Shown here: one piece after another, positions 1 to 16,077 of the stretch
How positions within the stretch are numbered: position 1 is the stretch's first letter
Layout of the letters: the number at the start of each line of letters is the position of its first letter
DNA from: Trueperaceae bacterium
GTDB lineage: Bacteria; Deinococcota; Deinococci; Deinococcales; Trueperaceae
Direction of reading: 5' to 3'
Length of the DNA stretch: 64,000 nucleotides
NCBI GenBank assembly: GCA_034520945.1
Contig: JAXHNB010000005.1
Span: 576,001 to 640,000 of the forward strand
Notes under the pieces: model-generated
The model's database searches: none
The model's input: the letters and a program-made list of their open reading frames with translations, nothing else
What the model was told of the DNA's origin: nothing
Position numbers and translations under genes: made by a program

Positions 1-847
1 AGCCGATGGCAAGGGTGCCCGTCGTGAGGTGGGATCTGAAGGAAGCCGGAGGCAAAGCGCTGGCCCGACGAATAGGAATCGCATAGGAGGCGGTCATGCT
101 GGATGAGGAGTCCAAAGTCTCTGAAGTCCGGTTCTTGCACGGAGGGTATGGCCGTAGATGCGGCGGGCATAAGCGTGAAGGTGGATGCGCATTACCCGGG
201 GAGGCCTACCGGTTGGCCTGTGTGCTACTGGCATCGAGAGGTGCTGGGATGGGCCGGTAGGAGTCAGCCGAGGGCGTAGTAGGTCCTTCGACCGGACTGA
301 AGGCCTGAACAGGGAGTGACGGACGGAGCTCGAGTTTCGATGGTGAGTGGAGACGCAGACAAGATGGCTGGGATGCCTGATTCCCACCCGGAGAGTAGCG
401 GCCGGATGTCGCTGGGGCATGGGTTGGGTGCGTCAAGCGCCACGGCAGCGAGGGATCACTCCGATCCGGAATTGCTGGTGTTGATGGACGTGGTGGTCGA
501 ACGCGGGAACATGACTGCGGCCTACAAGCGGGTGGTTGGCAACAGGGGTGCAGCGGGCGTGGATGGCATGTCCGTTGATGACTTGAAGCCGTGCCTGAAC
601 GAGTGTTGGTCGCGGGTGAAGGAGGAGTTGTTGGCTGGTCGGTACGAGCCGGCGCCGGTGCGGGTTGTTGAGATTCCCAAGCCGGGCGGTGGGGTGCGTG
701 TTCTTGGCATTCCGACGGTGATGGACCGGTTGGTGCAGCAGGCGTTGCTTCAGGTGTTGTCGCCTGTTTTCGATCCTGGCTTTTCCGAGTCGAGCTATGG
801 GTTCCGCCCTGGCCGGAGTGCACATCAGGCCGTGTTGAACGCACGAT
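1..847 (+). mobile_element. Group II intron (probably class C/IIC): 5' RNA part and truncated intron-encoded protein; the intron 5' end lies outside the window
   Basis: Leader motifs GCAAGGGTG..GTGAG..GGATCTGAAGGAAGC..GGCAAA and GAGTCAGCCGAGGGCGTAGTAG resemble IIC intron domains I-III. An RT ORF follows and is cut at about 848 by an IS1634 end. Confidence 0.8.
316..847 (+). pseudogene. ltrA: Group II intron reverse transcriptase/maturase, N-terminal fragment (RT0-RT2)
   Basis: Motifs NRGAAGVDG, EIPKPGGGVRVLGIPTVMDRLVQQA and SYGFRPGRSAHQAV. No YADD motif, because the ORF runs into IS sequence. Confidence 0.9.
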
Positions 848-1464
848 CCTCTCGTTCCGACGTTCGTGGGGTCGTTTTGCGGGGGGTTTCGGGGGGGCGT
901 GTTTTGCGTGTCAGGCGTTGGTGTAGCGTTCGGTGGGGATGTTGAGCAGGTTCAGTACTTGGTGTTGGGTGTTAGTGAGGGTGATCGGGTAGGTGTGCAG
1001 GATGGTTCCGTTGTGGGTGATGGCGTGCCGGGTGATGCCGGCGTAGAGCTTGAGGATGAGGTTGCTGGTGGGTCGGCTGGTGGGGCGCCCTTCGGGGTAG
1101 AGCGGCAGGCCATGAATGTGGTGGTGGGTCATGGCTTGGCGTAGTTCGCGTTCGATGAGGGCGCCGGTGAGGAGCGCGAGGAAGTCGATGATCAGGAGGG
1201 CGTGGATGCGGCCGGGGTTCTTGAGCAGGACGGGCGCGATCTCGAGGCCGCTCTTGGCGTCGCTGAAGCGTCGTTCCACGCCGTGCTGGCGCTTGTGCGC
1301 GTCGAGCGCCTGCTCGGGCGTGAGGGTGCGGTCGTTGCTGATGAGGGGGAACATCCCATCGCTCGCGCGCGTGAGGGTCAGCGCTTCTTCATTGACATGG
1401 TGGTGGATGGTCCACTTGCGTTTGTCGACGCGCTTGTAGGTGGTGTTCGGTCCGGGCCGGCCGG
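848..1464 (-). mobile_element. IS1634-family element, 3' remnant (transposase C-terminus 911-1464)
   Basis: GRPGPNTTYK..DGMFPLISND..VERRFSDAKSGLEIAPVLLKNPGRIHALL..LPLYPEGR. The 5' part is lost at the IS3 junction. Confidence 0.75.
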
Positions 1465-1507
1465 TGGACCTCCCCCGGCGAGGTGGACCGGGCTTGGGCG
1501 CCTTGGA

Positions 1508-2341
1508 TCATGCGGGCACCGTCCTGCGAGCGTACTGGGTTTCCCACTCCACTGGGGTGAGCATGCCCAGGGTGGAGTGACGCCGACGCTGGTTGTACGT
1601 CACCTCCAGCCAGAAGAAGAGCGCGGTTCTCAGTTCCTCCCTCGACCGCCACGCGTGGCGGTCGAGGAGCTCCGTCTGCAACGACGCGAAGAAGCTTTCC
1701 ATCACAGCGTTATCGTGGGGGCTTCCCCGACCGCTCATGCTACTGACCAGGCCCAAACCGGATAGCGTCTCGCCGAAACGAATCGAGGTGTACGTCGCTC
1801 CGCGGTCGGAGTGATGGATCAGGCCGCCGTTCAGGTCGCGCCGGCCGGCGGCCATGGCGACGGCGTCGACCACCAGCTCGGTGGACGCCTGCGTACCCAT
1901 GGACCACCCCACGATCCGTTTCGATGCCGCATCGAGGACGGCCGCCAGGTACAACCAGCCGTCGTCCGTAAGGTGCTGCGTCACGTCCGCGAACCACACG
2001 CGGTTGGGCACCTCCACCTCGAAGGCACGTTGGATGCGATCCGGCGCGACGCGCTCCGCCAGTGAGGCCTCCTGCGCCTTGCGGCGGCCCTGCTTGCGGC
2101 GGTGCACCCCCTGCAAGCCCGCAGCCCGCATGAGGCGCTCCACGCGCTTTGTGGAGACGTACCAGCCGTGCTCCAGGCGCAGCTCGGCGTGCACCCGTGG
2201 TGAGCCGTACGTGCCGTCCGACGCGGCGTGAATCTCACGGATGACGCGAAGCAGCTCATCGTCCTCCTGGGCCCTCTGGGACGGCGGGCGGTCCCGCCAG
2301 GCGTAGTACCCCGCCCGAGCAATGTTCAGAACGCGGCACAT
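1508..2341 (-). CDS. IS3 transposase OrfB (DDE/rve)
   Basis: YGSPRV, WFADVT, HHSDRGATY, DNAVMESFF, YNQRRRHSTLG. Confidence 0.92.
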   Translation of the reverse strand: MCRVLNIARAGYYAWRDRPPSQRAQEDDELLRVIREIHAASDGTYGSPRVHAELRLEHGWYVSTKRVERLMRAAGLQGVHRRKQGRRKAQEASLAERVAPDRIQRAFEVEVPNRVWFADVTQHLTDDGWLYLAAVLDAASKRIVGWSMGTQASTELVVDAVAMAAGRRDLNGGLIHHSDRGATYTSIRFGETLSGLGLVSSMSGRGSPHDNAVMESFFASLQTELLDRHAWRSREELRTALFFWLEVTYNQRRRHSTLGMLTPVEWETQYARRTVPA

Positions 2342-2391
2342 GGTTCTGACGCTGTGGTTCGCCTTCTCCGCATCGACGAACCGATAGACGC

Positions 2392-2670
2392 TTACCGCGT
2401 CGATCGGTCGTCCGTCGCGAAGAAGGCTGCCGCCTTTCGGAGAATCTCCCGTTCCTCACGCAACACGCGGTTCTCGCGTTTCAAACGGCGGATCTCCGCG
2501 CTTTCCTCGACCGCCTGCGGGTTCTCCTGGACTTCGGCGTCCCGCACCCACTTCCGGATCGAGTACGCGCTCACGCCCAGTTCCTCCGCCAGTTTCCGGA
2601 AGCCCTTGCCGCTCTCCCGGTAGAGGCGTACGACCTCCTGTTTGTACTCGCTGCTGTACCGCTTGGCCAT
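2392..2670 (-). CDS. IS3 transposase OrfA (HTH)
   Basis: KRYSSEYKQEVVRLY..LAEELGVS..IRKWVR..EIRRLKRENRVLREEREILRKAAAFFA. Confidence 0.9.
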   Translation of the reverse strand: MAKRYSSEYKQEVVRLYRESGKGFRKLAEELGVSAYSIRKWVRDAEVQENPQAVEESAEIRRLKRENRVLREEREILRKAAAFFATDDRSTR

Positions 2671-2742
2671 TCGGACCAGTCCTTTCCTTCCCGGAACCTA
2701 CCAGGAAGCAGTCACATGGTCCACGAGGCCGGAGGAACTCCA

Positions 2743-2959
2743 CACCCACACCAGCCGCAGTACCTCCCTGATCTTCCGCATCGAAACCCTCTTTCCAGGC
2801 ATGCGGCACCTCCAACGGCACCGTACGCCCCCAAGAATCCCCAACCCGCACCCCACCCCGGGAGGCTGGCGGAATCGATCGGAATCCGGTGGCGCCATCA
2901 ACCGGAATCAGATGGCGACATGAATCGGAATCAGGTGGCGACAACGACCGGAATATCCA
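2743..2959 (-). mobile_element. IS21-family left-end remnant with the first ~20 codons of istA
   Basis: End TGGATATTCC followed by repeated GCCACC-GATTCC units. The peptide MPGKRVSMRKIREVLRL is homologous to istA at 8568. Confidence 0.85.
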
Positions 2960-3963
2960 TCGCTGAAGAACGACAACCGGACCGGCACCAGTTCCGCCTG
3001 ATCCAACTTCGCGCGGGCGCCCTCGGTGGCGTCGATGGCGAGGACCACCACCTCCCCTTCCGCGGCGGGCGCCACCTGCAGGCGCGTCACCAGCTCCGCC
3101 AGCCACTCCAGGTACAGCTCGGCCGCCAGGGCGCTGAACCCGTAACGGTCCGTGAGTTCGTGGTGCATGCCCTCCCGCGCAGCGGGCGCGCCCGGCAGGA
3201 TCGCGCCGGCCGGCACGTCCAGCTCCCCCGCCTCGCGCGGGTGGCGCTGCAAGACCCAACGGACCTGCTCGACCTCGAGCGTGCTCCACCCCACCCGCGC
3301 GGCCAAAACCTCCGCAGGTGCCTCGTGCGCGTCGCGCACGCGCACGACCCCAGCCAGCAGCGCCTTCCAGGCCGACGGCGTCACGCCCAACGCGGCGCGT
3401 TCCTCCTCCAGCGCGCCTCCCGCCAGGAGGCGCCCCACAAGCCACGCCACCACGCCCAACGCCTCCAGCTGCTCCTGGCGACCCCCGACGTGCGGCAGCC
3501 ACACGCCCGCCTCCCGCTACGGCTGGAGGCGGCCCGCCAACGCCGAAGGGGACAAGCTCGCCCACGCCCCCACGTCCGCCAGGCTCGCCCACCCGCCGGC
3601 GCGGTGCACCTCGAGAAGCCACCGCACGATCCGGGCGCGCTGCAGGCCCGCAAGGCCCCACGCCTCCCACGCCCACCTGTCCTCCAGCACGTCCACCGCC
3701 GTGATCATCACCGGCGCCCGCCGTGCCGCCGAGTGCCGCCTGGAACGCGTCAGCGGCGCAGGCAAGCGCACCTGTCCCGGCAGGACCGCCAACCCCAACG
3801 ACGGCAACCACCCCAGGCTCGCGCGCGCCAACACCTCCGCCTCCAAGGGGCTACGACCGAACTCCACCCGCAACGCCCGCTCGATCACCACCCCCACCCC
3901 CTTCAAGCGCACCGAACGCATCTCGAACGCGATCCGTTGCCGGTAATTCCGAACCCGACCCAC
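2960..3963 (-). pseudogene. DUF1670-like gene A paralog, frameshifted near 3510 and truncated by IS21
   Basis: Clear homology to 6043-7626 (RWLLEVHRxGGWASL, WLPHVGG, AIDAxEGARAKL, LVPVRL). Confidence 0.85.
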
Positions 3964-4019
3964 CCCGTCACCCCCTCCAAGACAAGAACGAGGAGGCTAT
4001 CGTACTGGCAAACCGCTAT

Positions 4020-5997
4020 CCCGCCTTCGACACCTCGTGGGCATGCGCGGGGGTGGGGTCGTGCGTGGGACGGGGTTCGTAGGGTCGTAGGTGCGCGTCG
4101 GGGGGCTTGCGATGGGCATAAGCTTGTGGATAACGAGCTTGTCCTGTTCGTAGGTGACGTGCTATCGTGTGGGCATGTACGTTCGGGAGGTGAAGTCGGG
4201 CGGGCATGCCTACTTGTCGTTGGCGCACAACCGGCGCGATCCGGACAGCGGGCAGGTGAAGGCGGAGGTGCTGTACAACTTCGGTCGGAAGGACCGCATC
4301 GACCAGAACGCGTTGCGGCGCCTGGTGCGCAGCCTGGCGCGGTTCCTGGAGCCCGGCGAGGTGGAGCAGTTGGCGGGGTCGGGCGCGCTGGGCGACCTGG
4401 GCGCGTTCGTGCGGGCGAAACGGCTGGGCGGCACGCACGTGCTGGACGGGATCTGGGCGCGTCTCGGCATCGACGAGGCGTTACGCGGGCTGTTGAAGGC
4501 GCGGCGGTTCCGCACGCCGGTCGAACGGCTCCTGTTCGCGTTGGTGGCGCAACGGGCGTTGAACCCGGGCAGCAAGCTGGACGTGGAGTCTTGGGTGCGG
4601 GACGAGACGCACGTGAACGGCCTCGAGCAGCGTGGACGTGCAACAGCTCTACCGCGCCATGGACTTCCTGCTTGAGGCGCACGACGAGATTCAACGCGAG
4701 GTGTTCTGGAGCGTCAGCAACCTCTTCAACCTCGAGGTGGACGTGATCTTCGTGGATACCACCAGCGTGTACTTCGAGATCGAAGGCGAAGACGAGGCGC
4801 CCGTCGACGACGAGGCTGGGAACGGCGACGAAGGCGAGGGCGACGAGGGTGCCGAGGGCGCCGAGGCCTTGCGGATGCGCGGGCACTCCAAGGACGCCCG
4901 GCCGGACCTGGCGCAGGCCGTTGTGGCGTTCGCCGTCACCCGCGACGGGATTCCCGTCCGGTGTTGGGTGTGGCCCGGCAACACGGCGGACGTGAACGTC
5001 GTCGAGGAAGTGAAGCGGGACCTGAACGATTGGAAGCTGGACCGCGTGATCGTGGTGGCCGACACCGGCTTCAACATCGCAAGCGAACCGCCGCACCCTG
5101 CAGGGCGCGGCGGACGCGTACATCCTGGGCGAGAAACTCCGGCTCGGACCGAACGGCACCCTGCCGGAGGCGTTGCGGCGGCCCGGCCGGTACAAGACCC
5201 TTCAGAACGGGTTGCGGATCAAGGAGGTCACCACGCAGCGGGGCAGCGTGATGGCCCGGCGCTTCGTGGTGGTGCACAACCCTGAGCAGGCCAAACGGGA
5301 CCAGGCGAAACGCGACGAGATCGTCGCGGACACCGAGATGCGCCTCGCGAACATGAACCAGCTCGACGGGGAGGCGCACACCAAGGCCGCGTGCGACCTG
5401 CGCGCGCACCCGAGCTTCGGGCGGTACGTCCGGCAGACCAAGACCGGGCTCTTGCGGTTGGACAAGGGCAAGATCGCGCGGGAGGCGAAACTGGACGGGA
5501 AGTTCCTGGTCAGCACCAGCGATCCGCACCTCCCCGCCGAGGACGTCGCCATGGGGTACAAGCAACTGCACGAGGTGGAACGCGTCCACCGGGACTTGAA
5601 GCACACCGTCGACGTCCGGCCCGTCTACCACCGCCGAGCCGATCGGATTCGCGCGCACATGATCCTCTGCTGGCTGGCGCTCCTCCTGATCCGCGTGGCG
5701 GAGAACGAGACCGGCCGGACCTGGTTTCAGCTCAAACGAACCCTGCATTCCTTGTCCGTCGCGGAGCACACCACCGAGGCCGGCCCCATCGTGCAAACCA
5801 ACCGGCCCAACACCGAGCAGAAAGCCGTCCTGGACGCCGTGAACCTGAGACCACCCCCCAGGTACCTGGCGTTCCCCACCCCCACCAAGGCCGCCTGAAG
5901 GCGTAGACACAAACCCCAGACCGCCTTCAACGGCCGTTCTAGCGTCCCACACTTCCCGCACGGCCGATCCTTATGACCACCAACTGTCGAGCGCGGG
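4020..5997 (+). mobile_element. IS1634-family element
   Basis: IRs CCCGCCTTCGACA / TGTCGAGCGCGGG around a transposase gene. Confidence 0.8.
4175..5898 (+). pseudogene. IS1634 transposase with two frameshifts (~4630, ~5085; real or sequencing error)
   Basis: YLSLAHNRRD, IFVDTTSVYFE, RGHSKDARPDLAQ, WPGNTAD, VVADTGF, YKQLHEVERVHRDLK, RPVYHR. Confidence 0.85.
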
Positions 5998-6042
5998 ATA
6001 GCGGTCATGTGGTAGGAAGGGGTACGTTCTTGGGTTGGGAGG

Positions 6043-7626
6043 GTGCTGGTGGGTAGGTCGCGGCGGTATCGGGAGCGGATCGAGGCGGAGACGCGTTCGG
6101 TGGCGGTGAAGGGCGTGTCGGCGGTGATCGCGCGGGCATTGCGAACGGAGTTCGGCCGGAGCCGGATGGAGGCGGAGGCGTTGGCGGCGCGGAGCGTGGC
6201 GTGGCTGCCGGCGTTGGGGGTGGGCCTGGCGCCGGGACGAGCGACGCTGTCGGTGCCGGCGACGGCGTCGCGTCGTTGGGCACGGGAGCGCAGGCGCATG
6301 GCGACCCTATCGCTGGTGGACGTGGAGCGCGACACGGAGGCGTGGCGGCGTTGGGGCTTGCCCGCGCTGCAGCGGGCCCGGGCGGTGCGCTGGCTGCTCG
6401 AGGTCCACCGGCAGGGGGGTTGGGCGAGCCTGAGCGAGGTGGCGGCGTGGGCGAACCTGACGCCGACGGCGCTCTCATCGCGGTTGCGGCCGTTGCGGGA
6501 GGTGGGCGTGTGGCTGCCGCACGTCGGCGGGCCGGCGGCGTCGGACGCGGCGTGGGGCGTGGAGGCCTGGCTGCTGGGTCGGCACTTGGGGGGCGGCGAC
6601 CTCGCGGCGGCGCTGGAACTGGCGGGGTATGGCGATGCGGCATGGCGGGGGGTGCTGGAAGCCGCCGCGCGGATGATGGCGCTGCATGAGGCCGGCACCG
6701 AACCCGAGGAGATCGCGGGCGTGGTGGGGCGCAGCGTTCGCGAGGTGCGCGAGGGCCTGCGGGTGGTCGCGGATCACGGCGGTCTGGACCTCCCCGCGGT
6801 ATCGGCGCTGCCTCCCTCGCAGGCACGGGGGGAGGAGATCGAGGGGGAACTGGTCGAGCGGTTCGGGTTCTCGCGCGTGGCGGCGGGCCTGTACCGGGCG
6901 TGGTTGGCGCGCCTGGCGGGCGAACTGGCCGCGCCGGGCGCGGGCGAGGGCGAGCTGACCTTCTTCGCGATCGACGCGGGCGAGGGCGCCCGCGCGAAAC
7001 TGACGGAGGCGAAGCTGGTACCGGTCCGCCTGACGTTCATCACCGACGCGGACCTGGCGTTGGGGCCGCGCGGGCTGGTCCCGACGCGGGTGGCGGAAAT
7101 GAAGTTCGCGCGGATCGAACGGCTCGCCCGCCAAGCCCGTGAGCAGGGCGCCCTGCTGACCCTGCCGGACTTGGCGGTCCTGCTCGGAATGCACGTCGAC
7201 GCCATCCGGCATCACCTGGCGGAGCATCCCGACGTGCTGGTCCCCACCCGCGGGCGCGTCAAGGACATCGGGCGGGGCGTGAGCCACAAGACCTGGATCG
7301 TGGAGCTGTACCTGCAGATGCACTCCGAGAGCGAGATCGTCGAGCGCACCCAGCACGCGTACGAGAGCGTCGAAGCGTACCTCAGGGAGTTCGCGCGGGT
7401 GTTGATCCTTGCCGATCGCGGCATGAACGCGGTGATGATCCGGCGCGTCACGCACCGCTCGATGTCACTGGTGAACGGCTACCTCGAGTTGTACCGGCGT
7501 TACGACCGGCCCGAGCATCACTTCCGGTTGTCGCAACTGCGTGACGCGTTCACCCGCGAGGACCTCCTCGGCGGCGAAAAGGGGGGGCACCACCGTGCTT
7601 CCCGTACCGGGGACGGCACGCCGTGA
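6043..7626 (+). CDS. DUF1670-like protein A (527 aa)
   Basis: C-terminal QAREQGALLTLPDLAVLL..VPTRGRVKDIGRGVSHK..IVELYL..HAYESVEAYLREF resembles DUF1670. Confidence 0.75.
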   Translation: MLVGRSRRYRERIEAETRSVAVKGVSAVIARALRTEFGRSRMEAEALAARSVAWLPALGVGLAPGRATLSVPATASRRWARERRRMATLSLVDVERDTEAWRRWGLPALQRARAVRWLLEVHRQGGWASLSEVAAWANLTPTALSSRLRPLREVGVWLPHVGGPAASDAAWGVEAWLLGRHLGGGDLAAALELAGYGDAAWRGVLEAAARMMALHEAGTEPEEIAGVVGRSVREVREGLRVVADHGGLDLPAVSALPPSQARGEEIEGELVERFGFSRVAAGLYRAWLARLAGELAAPGAGEGELTFFAIDAGEGARAKLTEAKLVPVRLTFITDADLALGPRGLVPTRVAEMKFARIERLARQAREQGALLTLPDLAVLLGMHVDAIRHHLAEHPDVLVPTRGRVKDIGRGVSHKTWIVELYLQMHSESEIVERTQHAYESVEAYLREFARVLILADRGMNAVMIRRVTHRSMSLVNGYLELYRRYDRPEHHFRLSQLRDAFTREDLLGGEKGGHHRASRTGDGTP

Positions 7627-8567
7627 CCTGGCAGCACGAGGTGTTCGGCCCCATGCTGGAGCGCACCCTGGAGAACGCCCAGGTGCACTGCCTCGCCACG
7701 CGGTACGACCTCTCCCGCGACTCTCGCCTCGCGCGCGCCATCGTCACCAAGGTCAATACCGCCCTCGACACGGAAGAGCGAAGGCGCGGCGTGCAACGCG
7801 TCCATACCGGCGAACTGCTGATCCGCACCGGCCGCGGCCCGCTCGTCCTGCCGCTACGCACCCCAGAACTGCTCCAGCGCGTCATTGACGGTGAACGCTG
7901 GGACCGCGTGCGACGCGACATCCTCACCGAAAGCGCCGATCGGTACCGACAGCTGTTCCCCGACGCGCACCCCCAAGACGTGCGCGACTTCCTCCGCGCC
8001 CTCTATCCCGGCCGCATGCCACGCACGGCCGGCACCCATCCCGCCGTCGGGCCGCGCCGCACGCGCCCGTGGGGAAGCACCATCCCCGGCGGCACGCCCG
8101 CCCCCGAGCTGGACCTCGCACGGGCGGAACGCCGCACGCAGCGCGGCCCACCCAGGCCCGCCCACGAGCAAGACACCCTCATGGCCCTCACGCGCTACCT
8201 CGGCACCGAGGCCGGCATTCCCCCAGCCGTGCAGGAACCGATGCTGCTCGAGTTGAGCGCGCTACGCGCCCGTTTCCACCCCCGCGTCGGCATGCTCGCC
8301 AGCGGCCACATGCCCCTCGCCGCCATGCACGCCGATGCCGGCCGGAACCTCTGGCGCGCCAGTCGCGACCAACCCCTCGCGCCCATCACCATCAGCGTCC
8401 TGCAAGGTGGGTATTCCAGGCGTTTTCGGCCACCGATTCCACGGGAAAGCGGCCACTGATTCCACGGGATTCCGGCCACCTGTTCCAGGGGATTTCGGCC
8501 GCCCTTCCCGGGAGGGGTAGGGCGGGAATCTCGTTGGGCTTACGGTGCTTCCGTGAGGGGAGGCCGT

Positions 8568-10160
8568 ATGCCGAGGAAGAGGTTGTCGATGCGGAAGGTC
8601 AGAGAGGTATTGCGCTTGTTGTGGGGCCAGCGTCGGAGCGCGCGGGAGGTGGCCGTAAGCTGCAACCTGGCACGCAGCAGCGTCCGAGAGTACGAGCGGA
8701 GGGCCGAAGCTGCGGGCTTGTCATGGCCGCTGCCGGACGTGGACGACGGGACGCTGGAGAACACGCTGTTCCCCCCACGGCCTGGGGCGAAGGAGGTCGA
8801 ACGGCCGTTGCCGGACTGGGACGCGGCGGACCGGGAGTTGCGGCGGAACAAGCGGGTGACGCGCCTCCTTTTGTGGGAGGAGTACCGCGCAGCGCATCCG
8901 CTGGGGTACGCGTACAGCAAGTATTGTGAGGGCCTGCGCACCTGGCGTGACTCGCTGGACGTCTCCATGCGGCAGGTGCATTACGCGGGCGAGAAGGCGT
9001 TCGTCGATTACGCCGGGGACACGATTCCCATCGTCGATGCCGCTACGGGCGAGGTTCGCGACGCGCACGTGTTCGTCGGGGCGTTGGGCGCCAGCCAGTA
9101 CGCGTACGTGGAGGCCACCTGGACGCAGGCCCTGCCGGACTGGATCGCGTCGCACGTGCGGATGCTCGCCTACTTCAGGGGGTGCCCCGAAATCCTCGTG
9201 CCCGACAACCTTAAGGCCGGCGTGAAGAGCCCGCACCTGTTCGAGCCGGAGGTCAACCCGACCTACCTCGAGTTCGCGCGGCACTACGATGTCGCGGTGA
9301 TTCCCGCCCGCCGCCGCCGGCCCAAGGACAAGGCGGTGGTGGAGTCGGGCGTGCAGGTGGTGGAACGCTGGATTCTGGCGCGCCTCAGGAACCGGACGTT
9401 CTTCACGCTTGCGGAAGCGAACGACGCGATCTGGGCGTTGCTGGAGGAGTACAACGAGCGGCCGTTCCAGAAGCGGCCCGGCTCGAGGCGCTCCATGTTC
9501 CTGGAGCTCGACCGGCCGGCCTTGCGGCCGCTGCCCGCCGCGCGGTACGTGTTCGCGGAGTGGTCGAAGGTCCGACCGCACATCGATTACCACGTCCAGA
9601 TCGACAAGCACTTCTACAGTGTCCCCTACCAACTCCGCAAGAAACAGCTCGATGCGCGCGTGACGGCCTCGACGATCGAGGTGTTCCACCGCAACGCGCG
9701 GGTGGCGAGCCACGCCCGCTCGTACCAGAAGGGCGGGCACACCACCGTCAAGGAGCACATGCCCAAAGCGCACCAGGAGCACGCCGGCATGACAGAAGAG
9801 ACCTTATTCGCGTGGGCTGGCCGGATGGGGCCCGCCACCGTCGCGTTCACGGAGGGCGCCATCGCCGCGCGGACGCACCCGCAGCAGGCGTTCCGGTCCT
9901 GCGTTGGCACCCTGAACCTCGGCAAGACGTACGGCAACGACCGGCTCGAGAACGCCTGCGCGCGCGCCGTGAAGCTCCGCTCGTACTCCCTCAAGAGCGT
10001 CAAGGCGATCCTGAAGAACCGTCTCGACGAGCAACCCCTCGAAACGCCCCAAGCGGCCGCCCCACCGAAAACGCAGCATGAGAACGTCCGCGGCGGCGCG
10101 TACTACGCGGCTCCCAGCGAGCCTCGCGAAGAAGAGCAGGAGGGCCAGCCGGCATGCTGA
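8568..10160 (+). CDS. istA: IS21 transposase IstA
   Basis: [39 protein letters not shown]. Confidence 0.95.
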
Positions 10161-10914
10161 CGCACCCCACGCTCGAGAAACTCCGGACCCTGCAGTTGCG
10201 CGGCATGGCTGCCGCCCTCGAAGACCAAGCCCGCACGCCCGACATCGAAACCCTCTCCTTCGAAGAACGATTGGGACTGCTGTTGGACCGCGAGGAAACG
10301 ACCCGCGCCGATCGGCGCCTCAAGACCCGCCTCACCCAAGCGAAACTACGCGTGCCGGCCAGCATCGAGGACATCGACTACCAAGCGAAACGAAACCTGG
10401 ACAAGAGCGTCCTGCTGAACCTCGCCAACTGCAATTGGATCGAGCGGCACCAGAACCTCGTCATTACCGGCCCCACCGGCGTCGGCAAGACCTACCTCGC
10501 CTGCGCCCTCGCGCACAAGGCCTGCCAAGAGGGCCACAAGGCCCTCTACCAACGCCTCCCCAGGCTCCTGCACGACCTGGAGATCGCCAAAGGCGACGGC
10601 CGCTACCGAAGCATGCTCGCCAGCCTCCAACGCATCGATCTCATCGCCCTCGACGACTGGGGGTTACCCCCATGAGCGACACCAACCGGCGGGACCTCCT
10701 CGAACTCCTCGACGACCGCTACGCCACCAGAAGCACGCTCATCACCAGCCAACTGCCCGTCGACGCCTGGCACGACTACCTGAACGATCCCACCCTCGCC
10801 GACGCCATCCTGGACCGCTTCATCCACAACGCCCACCGACTCGACCTACGCGGCGACAGCATGCGCAAAACCCGCGGCCGATTGACAGACCACCAGGCCA
10901 CAAGCAACAGTTAA
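10154..10914 (+). CDS. istB: IS21 helper ATPase IstB, one frameshift near 10668
   Basis: [30 protein letters not shown]. Confidence 0.9.
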
Positions 10915-11597
10915 CCCACCTGCCCGCCCCCCAGGGAGAGGGCGGCCGCAATCACCCGGAACGGGTGGCCGGATAACCCCGGAATCACCGGCCGGAATCA
11001 ACCGGAAACGGCGGCCGAATAGCGTGGAATAGCCACAAGGCACCGAACGAGGCACCCTGCAAGCCAACCCGCCCGCCAGCGGCGACGCGTACCTCCAGCT
11101 TCACGGCACCCGCATGGCGCGCGCCCTCAGCGAAGCGTACCTCCAAGACGGCCTGCTCTCCTTCACCGAACTGCAGTGGATCTTCCTCGCCAGCCACGCC
11201 AGCGTCTCCCGCGCCATCGACCATTACCAACGCACGCACCACGTCATCCTGCCCTGCCCCGGCACCGTCCTCGACATGGGCCGCATGCTCACCCACAAGG
11301 ACCTCATCATCAAACTCCATCTACAAGGCCACACCGTCCTCGAGATCAGCGACCGCACCCACCACAACCCCCGCAGCATCGACGCCTACCTCAAAACGTT
11401 CGACGCCGTCCTCATCCTCAAGACCTACCACCTCCCCACCCCCCTCATCGCCACCGTCCTCGGCCACGGCCAAGAACTCATCCACGAATACCTCGACATC
11501 ATCGACGCCTACCTCAAACCCACCCACGCCATCCGCGAACACCTCCAACAACGAGGCGTCACCATCCCCACTCAAACACCACATGCCGGTTGACACA

Positions 11598-11638
11598 GCA
11601 AGGTCCACACCGGCGATCCGTCCGTTATCCTGGGACAC
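11598..11638 (-). pseudogene. N-terminal stub of a second IS110 transposase
   Basis: RBS GAAAGGAG followed by MSQDNGRIAGVDLA, which resembles the first DEDD motif. It stops at the DUF1670 module right end. Confidence 0.55.
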
Positions 11639-11778
11639 GGTCGCTCTCCTTTCTGGGTCACGAGCCCGTCAGTTACAGATGGGATGTAGAGGCCGCCCTC
11701 CGCCTGACGCAGTCACCCGTCGCGGGGCTGCTCTACCCTGTGGTGACGGGCTGGGTTGGCCCGGAAGGGAGGACGGCC

Positions 11779-12855
11779 ATGATCCAGGATACGTCTTCGG
11801 TTTCGCCTTGCATCGCAGGGGTCGACATTGGGGACGACACCTCCAGCGTGTGCATCTTGGATGCGGCATCGGGAGACGTGCTGGAGGAAACCCGCGTTCG
11901 GACGCGCGTGGCGGACGTGGAGCGGTACTTCGCGCGGTTGGACCCATTGCGTGTCGCCATTGAGACCGGGACGCACTCGTCGTGGATCGCGCGCGCCATC
12001 AGCGACGCGGGGCAAGACGTCACGATCGCCAACGCCGCGCACGTCCGGTTGATTCACGGCAGCAAACGCAAGAACGACCGGCTGGACGCCGAGAAACTCG
12101 GGCGCCTCCTCCGGTACGACCGGGCGTTGCTCGCGCCCATCACGCACCGGGGTCGCGCCGCGCAACTGGACCTTTCCGTTCTCCGTGCACGGGACGCGCT
12201 GGTCAGGGCGCGCACGCTCCTGATCAACCACGTGCGCGGGGTGGTGAAGTCCTACGGGCAGCGCATCCCCAAGTGCGAGACGAGCGCGTTCTCCAAGCAC
12301 GCCGCCTCGCACGTTCCCCCGGACCTGCTGCCCGCCCTGCAACCGCAGATCGAGGCGATCGCGCACCTCACAGAGCAGATCCGCAGCGCCGATCGGCGCG
12401 TAGCGGAGCTGTGCCGCACGACCCACCCCGAGACGGCCGTCCTGACGCAAGTACACGGCGTGGCCGAAACCACCGCCTTGACGTACGTCCTCACTCTCGA
12501 AGACCCCAACAGGTTCCACCGCAGTCGCGACGTCGGCGCGTACCTCGGTCTCACACCCGGCCAACGACAATCCGGCGGCAGGGATCCCGATAGGCACATC
12601 ACCAAGGCCGGCGATCGTGCGCTACGCAGGCTGCTGATTCAGTGCGCCCAACGCATCCTCGGCAAGCGCGGCATCGACAGTGACCTCAAGCGGCACGGGC
12701 AACGCATCATGCAACCCGGCACCAAGGAGGCGAAACGACGTGCCGTGGTCGCCGTCGCCCGCAAGCTCGCCATCCTCCTGCATCGACTCTGGATCACCGG
12801 CGAGGTGTACGAACCGCTCCACAACAACCAACCGAAACCGACCCCCTTGACGTGA
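11779..12855 (+). CDS. IS110 recombinase/transposase
   Basis: GVDIG, IETG, KNDRLDAEKL, YLGLTPGQRQSG, ITKAGD, AVARKL. Confidence 0.95.
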   Translation: MIQDTSSVSPCIAGVDIGDDTSSVCILDAASGDVLEETRVRTRVADVERYFARLDPLRVAIETGTHSSWIARAISDAGQDVTIANAAHVRLIHGSKRKNDRLDAEKLGRLLRYDRALLAPITHRGRAAQLDLSVLRARDALVRARTLLINHVRGVVKSYGQRIPKCETSAFSKHAASHVPPDLLPALQPQIEAIAHLTEQIRSADRRVAELCRTTHPETAVLTQVHGVAETTALTYVLTLEDPNRFHRSRDVGAYLGLTPGQRQSGGRDPDRHITKAGDRALRRLLIQCAQRILGKRGIDSDLKRHGQRIMQPGTKEAKRRAVVAVARKLAILLHRLWITGEVYEPLHNNQPKPTPLT

Positions 12856-12922
12856 GTTGAGTTCGCGCTCGGCGCGCGGCACGGACGAGGATCGCACCTG
12901 GGGCGTGCCCACCTTCCGGGAC

Positions 12923-13050
12923 GGGTGACTGCGACGGCTGGCTCTGGCTCTACGAAGCCGCTTTACAGAGTGCAGCACCCAACTTGGATGTACCCCACCC
13001 TGCACCGAGCCGACCTACCGGCTCACCACGAGTGCGCATGGAAGAACAAG
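12923..13050 (+). ncRNA. Predicted bridge/seek RNA with target- and donor-binding loops
   Basis: Stem GGGTGACTGC/GCAGCACCC. Loop strands GCTGGCTCT and TTACAG match the insertion flanks, and CATGGAAGA matches the predicted circle junction. Confidence 0.75.
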
Positions 13051-13448
13051 GCAAGGGCACCCCCGCATCAAGGCGCGCACCCCGCCCGCCACCGCCAGGC
13101 GCGACCGGCCCGTCAAGAACTACAAACCGCACCCAAGCAAACGCGGCGAAAACCACACCCCCGCGTCGGCGCCAACCTACGTTGACACGAAGCGGCCTCA
13201 ACATGGAAGAGTGCAGCACCCAACTTGGGTGTACCCCACCCTGCACCGAGCCGACCTACCGGCTCACCACGAGTGCGCATGGAAGAACAAGGCAAGGGGA
13301 CCCCGCATCGAGGCGCGAACCCCCGCCCCCACCGCCAGGCGCGACCGGCCCGTCAAGAACTACAAACCGCACCCAAGCAAACGCGGCGAAAACCACACCC
13401 CCCGCGTCGACGCCGCCCTACGTTGACACGAAGCGGCCTCAACATGGA
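12967..13448 (+). repeat. Tandem 241-bp imperfect duplication (12967-13207, 13208-13448)
   Basis: Direct alignment by eye shows several substitutions and small indels between the copies. Confidence 0.95.
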
Positions 13449-13475
13449 AGAGCCAGCGGGGCGCGGTCCCGCCCT

Positions 13476-14763
13476 GCGATTGGTGTCGATGGTTCCGCTA
13501 TTGGTCGCGGCGATCCTTCGCCCCGGTTGGTGGCAGCCCTACGTGAGTTTGGGACTGGGACTCACCCTCGGGTTCGTCGTGTTCACGATCTCACTGGCGG
13601 GACAGGTGTTGGCGGTGATCGCACTCGCTGGCCTAACCACGCTGCACGCGATTCGCAACCGCAACGCGTTGATCCAGCACGTCAAGGCCGTCGCGGTCCG
13701 CGCGTCGGTTCTTGTCGCGCTGGTAGCGGTGGGATTCACATTCGCGCTGCAACTCGTCGAGCCGGAGGCCATTCAGGTCCTCGGCGGGGGCGTCAACCTA
13801 ACGGACGTTCGCGAGCCGGAGGAGGAGGACCTGACGAAGGACAACCTGCGCCAAACGTTCAGGGAGCGCGGGGTGTGGATCGCGGACGCGCTCCGTCGCG
13901 GTGCAGAGCGCTTTCCGGTCGGGACGGGCGCTGGCAGCACGCGGCACATCTTCTCGTCGATCCAGTCCCACCCTGGCGTCGAGTCCGTCGACGTCCACAA
14001 CTACTACGTGCAGACGTTCATGACGCTGGGGCCCATCGGCGCGCTTGCACTGGTCTGGTGGTTGTTCGGTGCGGTTCACCTTGCATTCCTGCGTGGGCGT
14101 GTTGCGCTCGGCGTCGCAGGTGTCCTGTTCGCGATTCACCTCGGCTTCGACGTTGCCGGCTACTTCCCGGGCGTGATGATGAGCTTCATGCTTCTTGCTG
14201 GTGCGGGGGCCGCGACGGAGAAGCGGGCGTTTGCGCTCCCCAATGGGAGTGCTCCCGCGCACCGCATGCTCGGACTCGTCGCGTTGGTGGCGGTGTTCGC
14301 GTTCGTGGCGTACTGGGCGGTGTGGTCGCTTCCTTGCCAGGAACTCGATTGTGCCCTTGGGCGCCGCCTGGCGGAGCGAACCACGGTATCGGACGTCATG
14401 GCGCGTTCGACCGAGGCAGATCGGCTGCGCCTGGCCGCAGGGGCGGCACGCCTGAATCCCGATTCGTTGGCGGAGCGCCGTCGATTCGTCCATGAACTCG
14501 AGACCACGGTGTGGCGTTCCGGCGTGGATCCGTTGCCCGTGCTGCGCGAGCATGAGCGCTTGGTCGATGACTTTCGCGTGGCGGATCCCTACATCTACTG
14601 GGATTGGATCGAAGCGGCGACGCGCGCGGGAGATCGCGAAATGGCGTGCGAAGCTCGCCTTCGAGGATGGCAGGTGTTCGGCTTTCGCGGTTCGCACGTC
14701 CTTGCGCCGTCAGAGCGCTCTGCCGATGCGATGCAGGAGCCCGTGACGGTGCACTGTCGGTGA
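13476..14763 (+). pseudogene. O-antigen ligase / pilin O-oligosaccharyltransferase-like membrane protein, probably 5'-truncated
   Basis: Many TM segments and a Wzy_C-like motif GTGAGS..DVHNYYVQTFMTLGPIG. The upstream part of the ORF is IS sequence. Confidence 0.65.
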
Positions 14764-15115
14764 CGACGTGGTTCGATCGCGTTTACGTACATTACCCGGG
14801 CGAGTTCGTGCATTAGATTGTTACGTGCTGGACCGCACGGTTGGTCCCCGTTGAATTCTGATTGGACGTACACAGGCGATCAGTAGGCTGAATGTGGTAC
14901 GAGCCTCGGCGGCGGCATTGCGCCTTCAGTATCAGAGCCCCGTTGCCATCACGGCAAGATACACTCACCTACAGTCCCTACGCGGAAGGCTGCACAAGCA
15001 ACTTGAGCCTCTACGCAACCCAGAGCGGTTCAGGAATACCCGCCCCCCCAAACGTGGGTGGTGCGCCAGCCAACCGGCGGCGATAGTCATAAGCATGAGG
15101 ATTCGAGGCGAACTG

Positions 15116-15607
15116 ATGCTACGACACCCCGTCGGCATGGGACGCGACGCCGTCTCCATGATGGAAATCCTTATCGTGTTGGCGATCCTCGGCATTCTTT
15201 TTTCTATCTCGATTTCCGCAAGGACGGACGATGCGGGCCGCACGGCTCGGGACATGGCGAGACTATTTACGCAGGCGCGTTTCGAGGCGGTGAAGCGAGA
15301 GGCTCCAGTAGCCGTTGTGTGGAACGACGATGACAGTGTGCGCAGGCTCGAGGTGCGAGCAGGTGTAGCCACTTGTGCCGATGCGGGGACACTCGTGCGT
15401 ACGCTTGACGCGTCCGATCGGCGTGTGCGGTCCGTGAGCGTTGGTCTCGATGGCGCAGGGTTGATATGGCTTCCGAGCAACATCGCGCGCACATGCTCGA
15501 ATGATGTCTTCACGGGCACGGGCAATGAATCAAGAGTTGTCGTCGAAGGCCGTCGTTCCACATTCGAAGTCACGATTTCGCCGGCCGGCTTCGTGGAGGT
15601 GCAGTGA
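15116..15607 (+). CDS. FimT/GspH-like minor pilin
   Basis: A-VSMMEILIVLAILGIL type III signal; ARFEAVKR; terminal ISPAG. Confidence 0.75.
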   Translation: MLRHPVGMGRDAVSMMEILIVLAILGILFSISISARTDDAGRTARDMARLFTQARFEAVKREAPVAVVWNDDDSVRRLEVRAGVATCADAGTLVRTLDASDRRVRSVSVGLDGAGLIWLPSNIARTCSNDVFTGTGNESRVVVEGRRSTFEVTISPAGFVEVQ

Positions 15608-16077
15608 TGGTTGCAGGTAGCAGGTTGACAGCATCAAAGTCGAGGCGTGCTGGGCTGACGTTGCTTGAGGTGATCATCGCCGTTGCCATACTGGCCATCG
15701 GCATCCTTGCAGCGGCTGGCCTGCAGACCACGGCCCTGCGCACTACGAGAAACGTGTCGTTGATTCAAGCGTTGACGGAACGAGCCAATGAGGAGTTGGC
15801 ATTTCAGCGTAGCGTCTTTGACCGGGATCTCGAGCCGACCGCTGGTGCCTGTTCATCACCCGTGTCCGACTCGGATCCCTACAGGGATGAAATCGTGTGT
15901 ACGGTCGAAGTCTTCGACTGCGTCGTCACGGCCGGTTCCAGCGCCGCATGTGATGATTCCGGGGCCGGCAACGCGTTTCTCGTACGCGTGACAACGACAT
16001 CCCCGCTCGGCCCCCGAGAGGTCGTGCTTCAGCGCGTTCTCGGCGAGCGACCCTACTTCGACGGGGCTGAAGAATGA
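15604..16077 (+). CDS. PilV-like minor pilin
   Basis: RRAG-LTLLEVIIAVAILAIGILAAAGLQ. Confidence 0.85.
   Translation: MMVAGSRLTASKSRRAGLTLLEVIIAVAILAIGILAAAGLQTTALRTTRNVSLIQALTERANEELAFQRSVFDRDLEPTAGACSSPVSDSDPYRDEIVCTVEVFDCVVTAGSSAACDDSGAGNAFLVRVTTTSPLGPREVVLQRVLGERPYFDGAEE

Follow-up and report, generated by a model that had tools for sequence, protein, structure and literature searches.

The window analyzed here, a 64,000-nucleotide stretch of contig JAXHNB010000005.1 from a Trueperaceae bacterium, contains two copies of an element that carries a pair of genes, A and B, of the Pfam family DUF1670. The full copy occupies 5998-11598 on the plus strand, with its ends set by comparison with relatives, and a truncated copy (copy 2), recognized by genome search and by reading the sequence, lies at 2960-4019 on the minus strand. 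The A-B pair is a discrete mobile unit with fixed, sharp ends, and the element measures about 2.97 kb (5998-11598 minus an IS21 insert). An earlier note on this DNA had treated 2960-11597 as a single module present in two diverged copies. The two copies are real: a search of the organism's own genome returned only these, as a full match to A at 6046-7623 and a second, minus-strand match at 2914-3963, which is 52% identical to A over residues 3-351 and contains one in-frame TAG. The interval itself, however, is not one module, for it holds both element copies, an IS1634-family insertion sequence (IS) between them, and an IS21 element inside B.

The A-B gene pair

Gene A (6049-7626, plus strand) is intact and encodes 525 amino acids (aa) from a GTG at 6049, although the list of open reading frames (ORFs) starts it at 6043; a ribosome-binding site precedes it. 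A matches DUF1670 (PF07900) with 160.7 bits against a cut-off of 25, which confirms the family that the earlier note had proposed. Gene B starts within A, the two overlapping by the GTGA at 7623-7626, an arrangement of translational coupling. The coupling claimed for the full copy therefore holds at this overlap, but B is no longer whole in the window, because an IS21-family element (8408-11035, plus strand, 2,628 bp) divides it into an N-terminal piece of 261 codons (7623-8407) and a C-terminal piece of 183 codons (11041-11593) that carries the DUF1670 domain, both on the plus strand. A 5-bp duplication, CAAGG, flanks the IS21 element at 8403-8407 and 11036-11040, and the pieces (7623-8407 and 11041-11593) are in frame once that element and one CAAGG copy are removed. 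In relatives, B is one continuous gene of 430 to 450 aa, with which the window's two pieces align end to end. The C-terminal ORF at 11114-11593 matches DUF1670 with 106.9 bits (cut-off, 25), and intact B homologues at loci L052 and L090 reach 118.4 and 117.4 bits on PF07900. Among 100 related loci, A is followed by a whole B in 72, by a contig edge in 17, and by a partial B in 4, and 7 have no B. In copy 2, what remains is a pseudogene, A' (3963-2960, minus strand), found by the search of the organism's own genome and bearing the in-frame TAG. Both copies in the window are dead, one with its B split by IS21 and the other truncated.

A and B are paralogous over 234 C-terminal aligned columns (hhalign, 99.7%; E value, 1e-26), while their N-terminal halves differ. 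Gene A comprises at least five helix-turn-helix (HTH) or winged-HTH modules, the C-terminal 180 aa being DUF1670. Its AF2 model has a predicted local distance difference test (pLDDT) of 91.1 and a predicted template modeling score of 0.82, and the intact B homologue of L052, which is 65 to 69% identical to the window pieces, was modeled at a pLDDT of 83. Both models are nearly all helical, with two small beta-hairpins each. A prediction of the A-B complex for the cognate pair of L052 gave a score of 0.10 (mark, 0.32).

Searches for a catalytic domain with a known fold returned HTH parts. VIA-align runs against 48,161 chains gave best Z scores of 6.8 for A and 7.1 for B, and the matches were HTH pieces of the DeoR, LuxR/GerE, MarR, TrpR, small-terminase, and resolvase types, along with common helical arrangements. 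The alignments to resolvases were confined to their HTH parts (5cy1, Z of 5.9; 2r0q, Z of 5.6), and as the models exceed 400 residues, a small domain may escape such a search. No nuclease, recombinase, or topoisomerase fold rose above noise in the fold searches with A and B. Foldseek found nothing in the PDB for the A model at an E value of ≤0.001; a match to topoisomerase V (5hm5) was dismissed as not significant, with an E value of 0.82. When A was compared as a profile with PDB sequences, the only matches were weak ones to HTH pieces of Lrp/AsnC and mariner (best E value, 0.039). NCBIfam returned no family for A, B, or the truncated copy, and in the Pfam and NCBIfam searches DUF1670 alone matched, with no DDE, HUH, tyrosine, or serine recombinase domain in either protein. 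The earlier note had recognized none of these four recombinase motifs, and the Pfam, NCBIfam, and fold searches agree with it.

Both paralogues keep the pattern P-T-x-G-x-V-x-D-x-G-R-x-x-(S/T)-H-K ... H-x7-Y, and in A, numbered from 6043, the shared positions include D408, R411, H415, K416, H438, and Y446. The set D-x-G-R-x-x-(S/T)-H-K ... H-x7-Y is a candidate for active residues or, alternatively, for a DNA-reading surface.

Loci L023 to L027 carry a shorter A-like gene that matches residues 2-410 and has no B beside it and a terminator-like hairpin upstream; it appears to be a resident single-gene relative and not the mobile pair.

Mobility and distribution

That the pair is a mobile unit follows from its patchy distribution, from filled and empty sites in one genome, and from near-identical copies in different flanks. 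At L010 5947-8924, a 2,978-bp insertion containing A-B only lies within a palindromic repeat, and the same genome has this repeat uninterrupted twice (L010 827-1040 and L048); the junctions are exact to 0 to 2 nucleotides (nt). With a slash marking each junction, the filled site reads ...AAATCCGG/ATAGCGG...TTGACAGGG/CCACTGG..., and the empty sites read ...AAATCCGG/CCACTGG.... Across element junctions, there is at most a 2-nt (RG) ambiguity or duplication.

Near-identical copies elsewhere give the same boundaries. L072, L073, and L074 have 3,080 to 3,090 bp in common at 99.9 to 100% identity, between left and right flanks that differ; L067, L068, and L070 have 3,204 to 3,207 bp in common at 99.9 to 100%; and L092 and L090 have 3,179 bp in common at 100%. 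In all of these sets, identity ends at the same bases, which makes ATAGC... the left end and ...TTGAC(A/G)NRG the right end. Alignment of flanks, which the earlier note had put forward as a check, thus yields sharp ends, empty sites, and copies that are 98.9 to 100% identical in different surroundings.

A total of 108 homologues of gene A were found, with about 60% identity being common and many of them on contigs of about 3 kb. A metagenome scan gave 217 relatives, and in a sample of genomes from a single phylum, 22 of 301 match; a protein search of a plasmid collection found no match. Because the window's own genome holds only the two copies described above, and because PF07900 has no match in 36 genomes of the same family, the element was acquired horizontally by this genome.

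The proposal in the earlier note that the pair forms an excising element is borne out as regards a discrete mobile unit with sharp ends and empty sites, but not as regards a circle junction. A search for a junction of right to left end, as a circle or tandem would have, gave 17 pattern matches over 153 loci, none of which is such a junction, and the contigs of four public runs (X1, X5, X15, and X16), compared with L097:1700-8144, contained no joints. As contigs drop rare forms, this contig-based result says nothing against a circle.

The palindromic repeat at L010 and L048 is a 214-bp unit with a 120-bp long-stem palindrome, present in three copies (L010 827-1040, L048 1143-1353, and, around the insertion, L010 5909-9006). 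The arms of the palindrome resemble IS1634 ends set tip to tip across 16 bp, and the repeat may be a circle-junction relic or a miniature inverted-repeat transposable element (MITE).

Ends, leader, and putative promoter parts

The element begins on the left with ATAGCGGT... and closes on the right with ...GGTTGAC(A/G)NRG. There are no terminal inverted repeats at the element ends. A subterminal inverted repeat of 12 to 15 bp has one arm about 10 nt in from the left end and the other about 14 nt in from the right; it beats all 200 shuffles in two of six elements and has the same position in five of the six. ATAGCGGT itself is present at both ends as a direct repeat.

In the window, the left terminus ATAGCGGT stands at 5998-6005 (plus strand) in the full copy and at 4019-4012 (minus strand) in copy 2. 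The left end and leader of the full copy span 5998-6048 on the plus strand, with the boundary taken from the filled and empty sites of L010 and from the identical copies. The homologous leaders of about 55 bp reported in the earlier note are present, as both copies open with ATAGCGGT and share some 50 to 60 nt; a search for homology of the leader to ISs found none. Also in place are the -10-like hexamers, TAGGAA at 6013-6018 (plus strand), part of an extended -10-like TGG TAGGAA, and TACGAT at 4004-3999 (minus strand), each exactly 15 nt inside its left end, and the outward-directed TTGACA at 11590-11595. This hexamer overlaps the TGA of B and, together with the CAG that follows, forms the plus-strand right terminus (11590-11598), placed by comparison with relatives.

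These motifs are kept well beyond the window. In the close and the distant clade alike, and in nearly all of the right ends compared, TTGAC[AG] stops three bases short of the terminus, and it persists even where the stop codon of B lies 20 to 125 nt upstream, so coding does not explain its conservation. At the other end, all 19 junctions whose left terminus is correctly placed have a TGnTAnnnT box that begins 15 nt in from it. Joined ends would thus be expected to form a promoter consisting of TTGACA, an 18-bp spacer, and an extended -10. The earlier note had suggested such a junction promoter with a spacer of 16 to 17 bp. The split geometry of -35 and -10 survives comparison across relatives, but the spacer becomes 18 bp because the right terminus, by the same comparison, lies 3 nt past TTGACA.

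IS1634 tips as the insertion target

In the window, both left ends of the DUF1670 element adjoin the two tips of one IS1634-family IS (4020-5997, plus strand, 1,978 bp, frameshifted). The junctions read ...CTGTCGAGCGCGGG/ATAGCGG and, inverted, ...GTGTCGAAGGCGGG/ATAGCGG. The description of the IS1634 family by De Palmenaer et al. (2008, PMC2266710) includes the terminal consensus C-----YT, a size of 1.5 to 2 kb, and target duplications of 5 to 6 bp. The element at 4020-5997 has an NF033559 transposase, C-----YT ends, and a size within that range. Its transposase is spread over three plus-strand frames (4154-4675, 4632-5285, and 5173-5898), of which two fragments score 43.5 and 148 bits on NF033559 (cut-off, 100), and PF01609 matches as well. 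Its terminal inverted repeats are imperfect, starting CCCGCC TT.. and CCCGCG CT.., and its tips are CCCGCCTT and CCCGCGCT. A partial IS1634 copy on contig C6, 70% identical, ends at window position 5994 and is followed by unrelated DNA; the tip in the window is therefore real, and A-B lies outside it. The possibility that the conserved left flank belongs to the DUF1670 element was considered and rejected, since identical copies diverge exactly at ATAGC; the end of the C6 copy at that point rules it out as well.

The same arrangement recurs in the clade that is at least 41% identical to A. When junctions in this clade are counted per locus, using the run with a correctly placed terminus, 22 of 24 distinct junctions (19 of 21 plus 3 of 3) have a left flank that, in reverse complement, fits C-Y-N4-Y-T and continues with TTCGACAG-like bases. 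An IS1634-type transposase gene lies in the fetched flank at 28 of 100 loci, and an intact one, at L053, scores 354.6 bits on NF033559 (cut-off, 100); at this locus, as in the window, A-B left ends lie on both sides of the IS. A comparison of 12 elements by eye showed that, in 11, the right end closes with the same dinucleotide (AG or GG) as the IS tip beside it. In this clade, insertion is base exact and in a single orientation at a conserved target, and the IS tip is left intact.

The exceptions share a target of their own. L075 and L076, the remaining 2 of the 21 junctions, and also L082 and L083, have a different conserved target, GGTGGATTTRGG/ATAGCGG, which at L082 stands beside a gene that by eye looks like an ATPase and without an IS1634 match. 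An IS1634 tip is therefore not obligatory, as this sub-clade sits at GGTGGATTTRGG/ beside a non-IS gene.

In distant relatives, which are 29 to 38% identical to A, the arrangement is reversed, and it is the right end (...CTTGACAAT/) that touches the IS tip. Two details of this group may be recorded. The left terminus of L092 (CTCCTTCT...) itself fits the IS1634-tip pattern C-Y-N4-Y-T. At L090 353-381, a possible footprint or target mimic is present in the left flank, where 12 nt of the element's own left terminus are repeated 5 nt ahead of the real one.

Adjacency of this kind could arise if A-B were the passenger of a compound unit derived from IS1634, mobilized from the far IS tip to a surrogate end beyond B, as in ISEcp1. 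L058, L062, and L064 share both the IS and A-B, at about 87 to 89% each, from the far tip of the IS to the right terminus of A-B, and the 28 flanks with a transposase gene fit as well. At L148, moreover, a 5-bp duplication, TTGAA, flanks the unit of IS plus A-B, and a hand translation of the flanks shows the interrupted reading frame continuing across TTGAA. The L148 pattern is likewise what A-B would leave by inserting between an IS already in place and the duplicated flank of that IS, and no target duplication surrounds IS plus A-B at L058, L065, or L097, L148 being the only case.

The behavior of near-identical A-B copies argues strongly against such a passenger, because their IS neighbors differ or are absent. 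L092 and L091 are 99.7% identical in A-B and 63% in the adjacent IS; L058 and L059 are 98.9% identical in A-B, yet the IS of L058 has no match in L059; and L073 and L074 are 100% identical in A-B and diverge from the first flank base. IS1634 copies also occur without A-B, as in genome G062, which has three; the right end of A-B has no IS-like repeat; and the insertion at L010, with its empty sites, consists of A-B only. Given that insertion and the differing IS neighbors, the passenger reading is largely refuted and we regard it as improbable.

The converse order of events, in which a resident A-B locus attracts IS1634 elements to its left terminus, is more improbable still. It would require two independent events for each of the 22 junctions. 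In the window and at L053, both tips of one IS adjoin inverted A-B left ends, with no 5- to 6-bp duplication of A-B, identical A-B copies have different far flanks, and the duplication at L148 fits an order in which the IS came first and A-B later.

A-B is thus not part of the IS1634 element and moves without the neighboring IS. It starts directly outside the IS tip and not between the IS terminal inverted repeats. Apart from the last 2 nt, its ends (ATAGCGGT... and ...TTGACANRG) have nothing in common with IS tips and are not MITE-like, and its subterminal repeats are its own and not those of IS1634. On the complete chromosome at L146, A-B occupies a lone tip-like sequence, and the roughly 4.7 kb upstream of it contain no transposase. 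The earlier note had held that homologues always lying inside an element with a known transposase would undo its idea. Adjacency to IS1634 tips approaches that situation, but A-B is located beyond the IS ends and moves independently of the adjacent IS.

How the pair might move

The evidence leads us to a reading, held with about even confidence, in which the mobile element, about 2.97 kb long, has A and B as its only genes, and these two proteins themselves cut and join DNA. Movement would be site-specific cutting and joining through a circular or tandem form. In the joined form, A and B would be driven by a promoter composed of TTGACA from the right end and the TGnTAnnnT box from the left end, with an 18-bp spacer between them. 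The two multi-HTH paralogues would bind the subterminal repeats and the IS tip and would carry out strand exchange themselves, probably at the 2-nt RG, a position suggested by the identity of the last two bases of the right end and of the target tip in 11 of 12 elements. A bolder version, to which we give less than even weight and which is offered tentatively, makes DUF1670 a new class of recombinase or transposase composed of HTH modules only, in which A and B alone would excise a circle and insert it at the outer edge of IS1634 in one orientation, with a putative active site formed by the D, H-K, H, and Y residues of the conserved pattern.

Several observations weigh against catalysis by A and B. 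Pfam, NCBIfam, Foldseek, and VIA-align reveal no catalytic domain in either protein, so catalysis by them is without support from precedent. The insertion point coincides exactly with the cleavage site of the IS1634 transposase. In the distant clade (L022 and L089 to L130; for example, L090 407-655), a small gene, Z, encoding 79 to 100 aa, lies upstream of A, and a profile of 17 Z sequences matches the first 40 to 58 residues of IS1634 transposases, with E values of 6.7e-11 to 8.7e-4 in a small local ORF set and of 8.2e-6 for the transposase fragment in the window. IS1634 occurs in 17 of 22 A-positive and 100 of 279 A-negative genomes (one-sided Fisher P value, 1.7e-4), in a set of 301 genomes of one phylum for which the overlap was counted by hand and in which related genomes are not independent. 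As to the promoter, the calls are at consensus level only, and the -10-like box overlaps the subterminal inverted repeat and may be a protein-binding site instead of a promoter element. We infer the circular or tandem intermediate, since no joined form was found, and most of the loci are metagenome contigs or metagenome-assembled genomes (MAGs).

The coincidence with the cleavage site, the homology of Z, and the co-occurrence are explained no less well by dependence on the IS enzyme. Such dependence would make A-B a hitchhiker, whose HTH proteins deliver its ends, or its circle junction, to an IS1634 end, where the DDE transposase of IS1634 cuts and joins; landing exactly at the cleavage point would then follow, because the transposase sitting on that end does the cleaving. 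The exact match to IS boundaries, seen at 22 of 24 junctions and, in the distant clade, at the right junctions, agrees with this account, as do the shared last two bases in 11 of 12 elements, the transposase-like N terminus encoded by Z, the 17/22 versus 100/279 distribution, and the missing catalytic fold in A and B. It is harder to reconcile with ends that are unlike those of IS1634 beyond 2 nt and with a sub-clade that uses a different conserved target beside a non-IS gene. In addition, the genome with the filled and empty sites of L010 has only sub-threshold IS1634 fragments (best, 47.6 bits; cut-off, 100), although this point is weak, the genome being a MAG. We consider the hitchhiker account less likely than catalysis by A and B.

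Relation to known insertion elements

IS110/IS1111 elements, which encode a DEDD transposase, lack terminal inverted repeats, produce no or minimal target duplication, and insert with a single orientation at a specific sequence, which frequently belongs to another repeat. Their -35 and -10 lie at opposite ends and meet only when the ends are joined. A-B resembles them in lacking terminal inverted repeats, in its minimal duplication, in its oriented and specific insertion, and in its putative split -35 and -10. It differs in having two HTH-only genes in place of a single transposase and in having no DEDD/Transposase_20 match (PF01548 plus PF02371); as a positive control, both models do match the separate IS110 gene (11779-12855). 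Its leader of 44 to 62 nt also leaves no room for a guide RNA. With regard to the IS110/IS1111 circle and its junction promoter, the promoter parts are conserved in A-B, but no joined form appears in loci or in contigs, the latter dropping rare forms.

IS1634 elements, which are IS4-related DDE elements, are instead the physical partner of A-B, which adjoins their tips and in the distant clade has a homologue of the transposase N terminus. A-B is unlike them in lying outside the IS ends, in its unrelated ends, in having no DDE domain, and in moving without the IS. Nor does it resemble IS21 (IstA/IstB), as it has no rve or AAA matches, whereas the true IS21 inside B has them.

MITEs bear the inverted repeats of a donor IS and have no genes, and Xer-dependent elements borrow a host recombinase. 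A-B resembles both in having no recognizable recombinase of its own, which would fit the hitchhiker account. Unlike MITEs, it has different ends and two conserved genes, and unlike Xer-dependent elements, it has a target that is not dif-like. To our knowledge, every established family of prokaryotic insertion elements has a known catalytic fold, whether DDE/RNase H, DEDD, HUH, or that of a tyrosine or serine recombinase.

A full-text literature search found no paper on DUF1670 or PF07900, and a search for accessory genes in the IS1634 family returned nothing relevant by title or abstract. New here are the element's docking at ends of IS1634, gene Z, and the conservation of the putative split promoter. 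Should A and B cut and join DNA, they would represent a new kind of enzyme for doing so, and if they act alone, the element would be a parasite of another transposon's terminus; should the transposase be borrowed, this would be the first gene-carrying satellite that docks on the end of another insertion sequence. The element gives a function to the orphan Pfam family DUF1670 and accounts for many of the hypothetical gene pairs, on contigs of 3 kb, at which metagenome assemblies break. Base-exact, single-orientation insertion beside a defined sequence of about 14 bp is also a property wanted in programmable DNA insertion tools.

Surroundings of the element in the window

The DUF1670 copies belong to a stack of nested mobile elements that fills window positions 1-13,100, five of them inside 2698-11598. 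The IS21 element within B encodes IstA at 8553-10160 and IstB, in two frames, at 10154-10914, on the plus strand, with matches to Pfam rve and Mu-transpos_C_2. Its ends are fixed by a 99.9% identical copy on contig C9, which matches window positions 8408-11037. On the other side, copy 2 is truncated at about 2960 by a diverged IS21-like fragment (2698-2959, minus strand), recognized by a 70% match to the left end of the IS21 copy, with terminal repeats and the first codons of an IstA-like gene. Translation of the ORF at 2698-2901 gives an IstA-like N terminus, and the fragment is, by eye, itself cut by an IS3-like element.

To the right of the full copy, a unique flank of 72 bp (11599-11670) separates the DUF1670 element from an IS110-family element that starts at 11671, matches PF01548 and PF02371 at 11779-12855, and has a 100% identical copy on contig C6. 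The earlier note had read the right end of the full copy as cutting off an IS110 ORF after 14 codons. That ORF proves to be a minus-strand frame with a GTG start and an IAGVD-like motif at 11638-11597, which runs two bases into the DUF1670 element; the 76 bases at 11597-11672 have no other copy in the genome, and the real IS110 copy starts at 11671.

An Rfam search of window positions 1-16000 found nothing in the DUF1670 element and only two group II intron domains, RF02001 (132 bits, 18-189) and RF01998 (58 bits, 225-305). Downstream of these lies a reverse-transcriptase-like ORF (316-945), seemingly truncated by the next element. By translation only, the C terminus of an IS4-like transposase is found at 911-1354 and an IS3-like orfA/orfB pair at 2392-2670 and 1508-2341, all on the minus strand. 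Beyond the IS110 element, two adjoining, similar units of about 240 bp occupy 12925-13430, and the ORFs at 12984 and 13225 open with the same N terminus of about 27 residues. A 134-bp piece of the 3' flank of IS110 recurs about 110 bp onward (13208-13340) at 94% identity.

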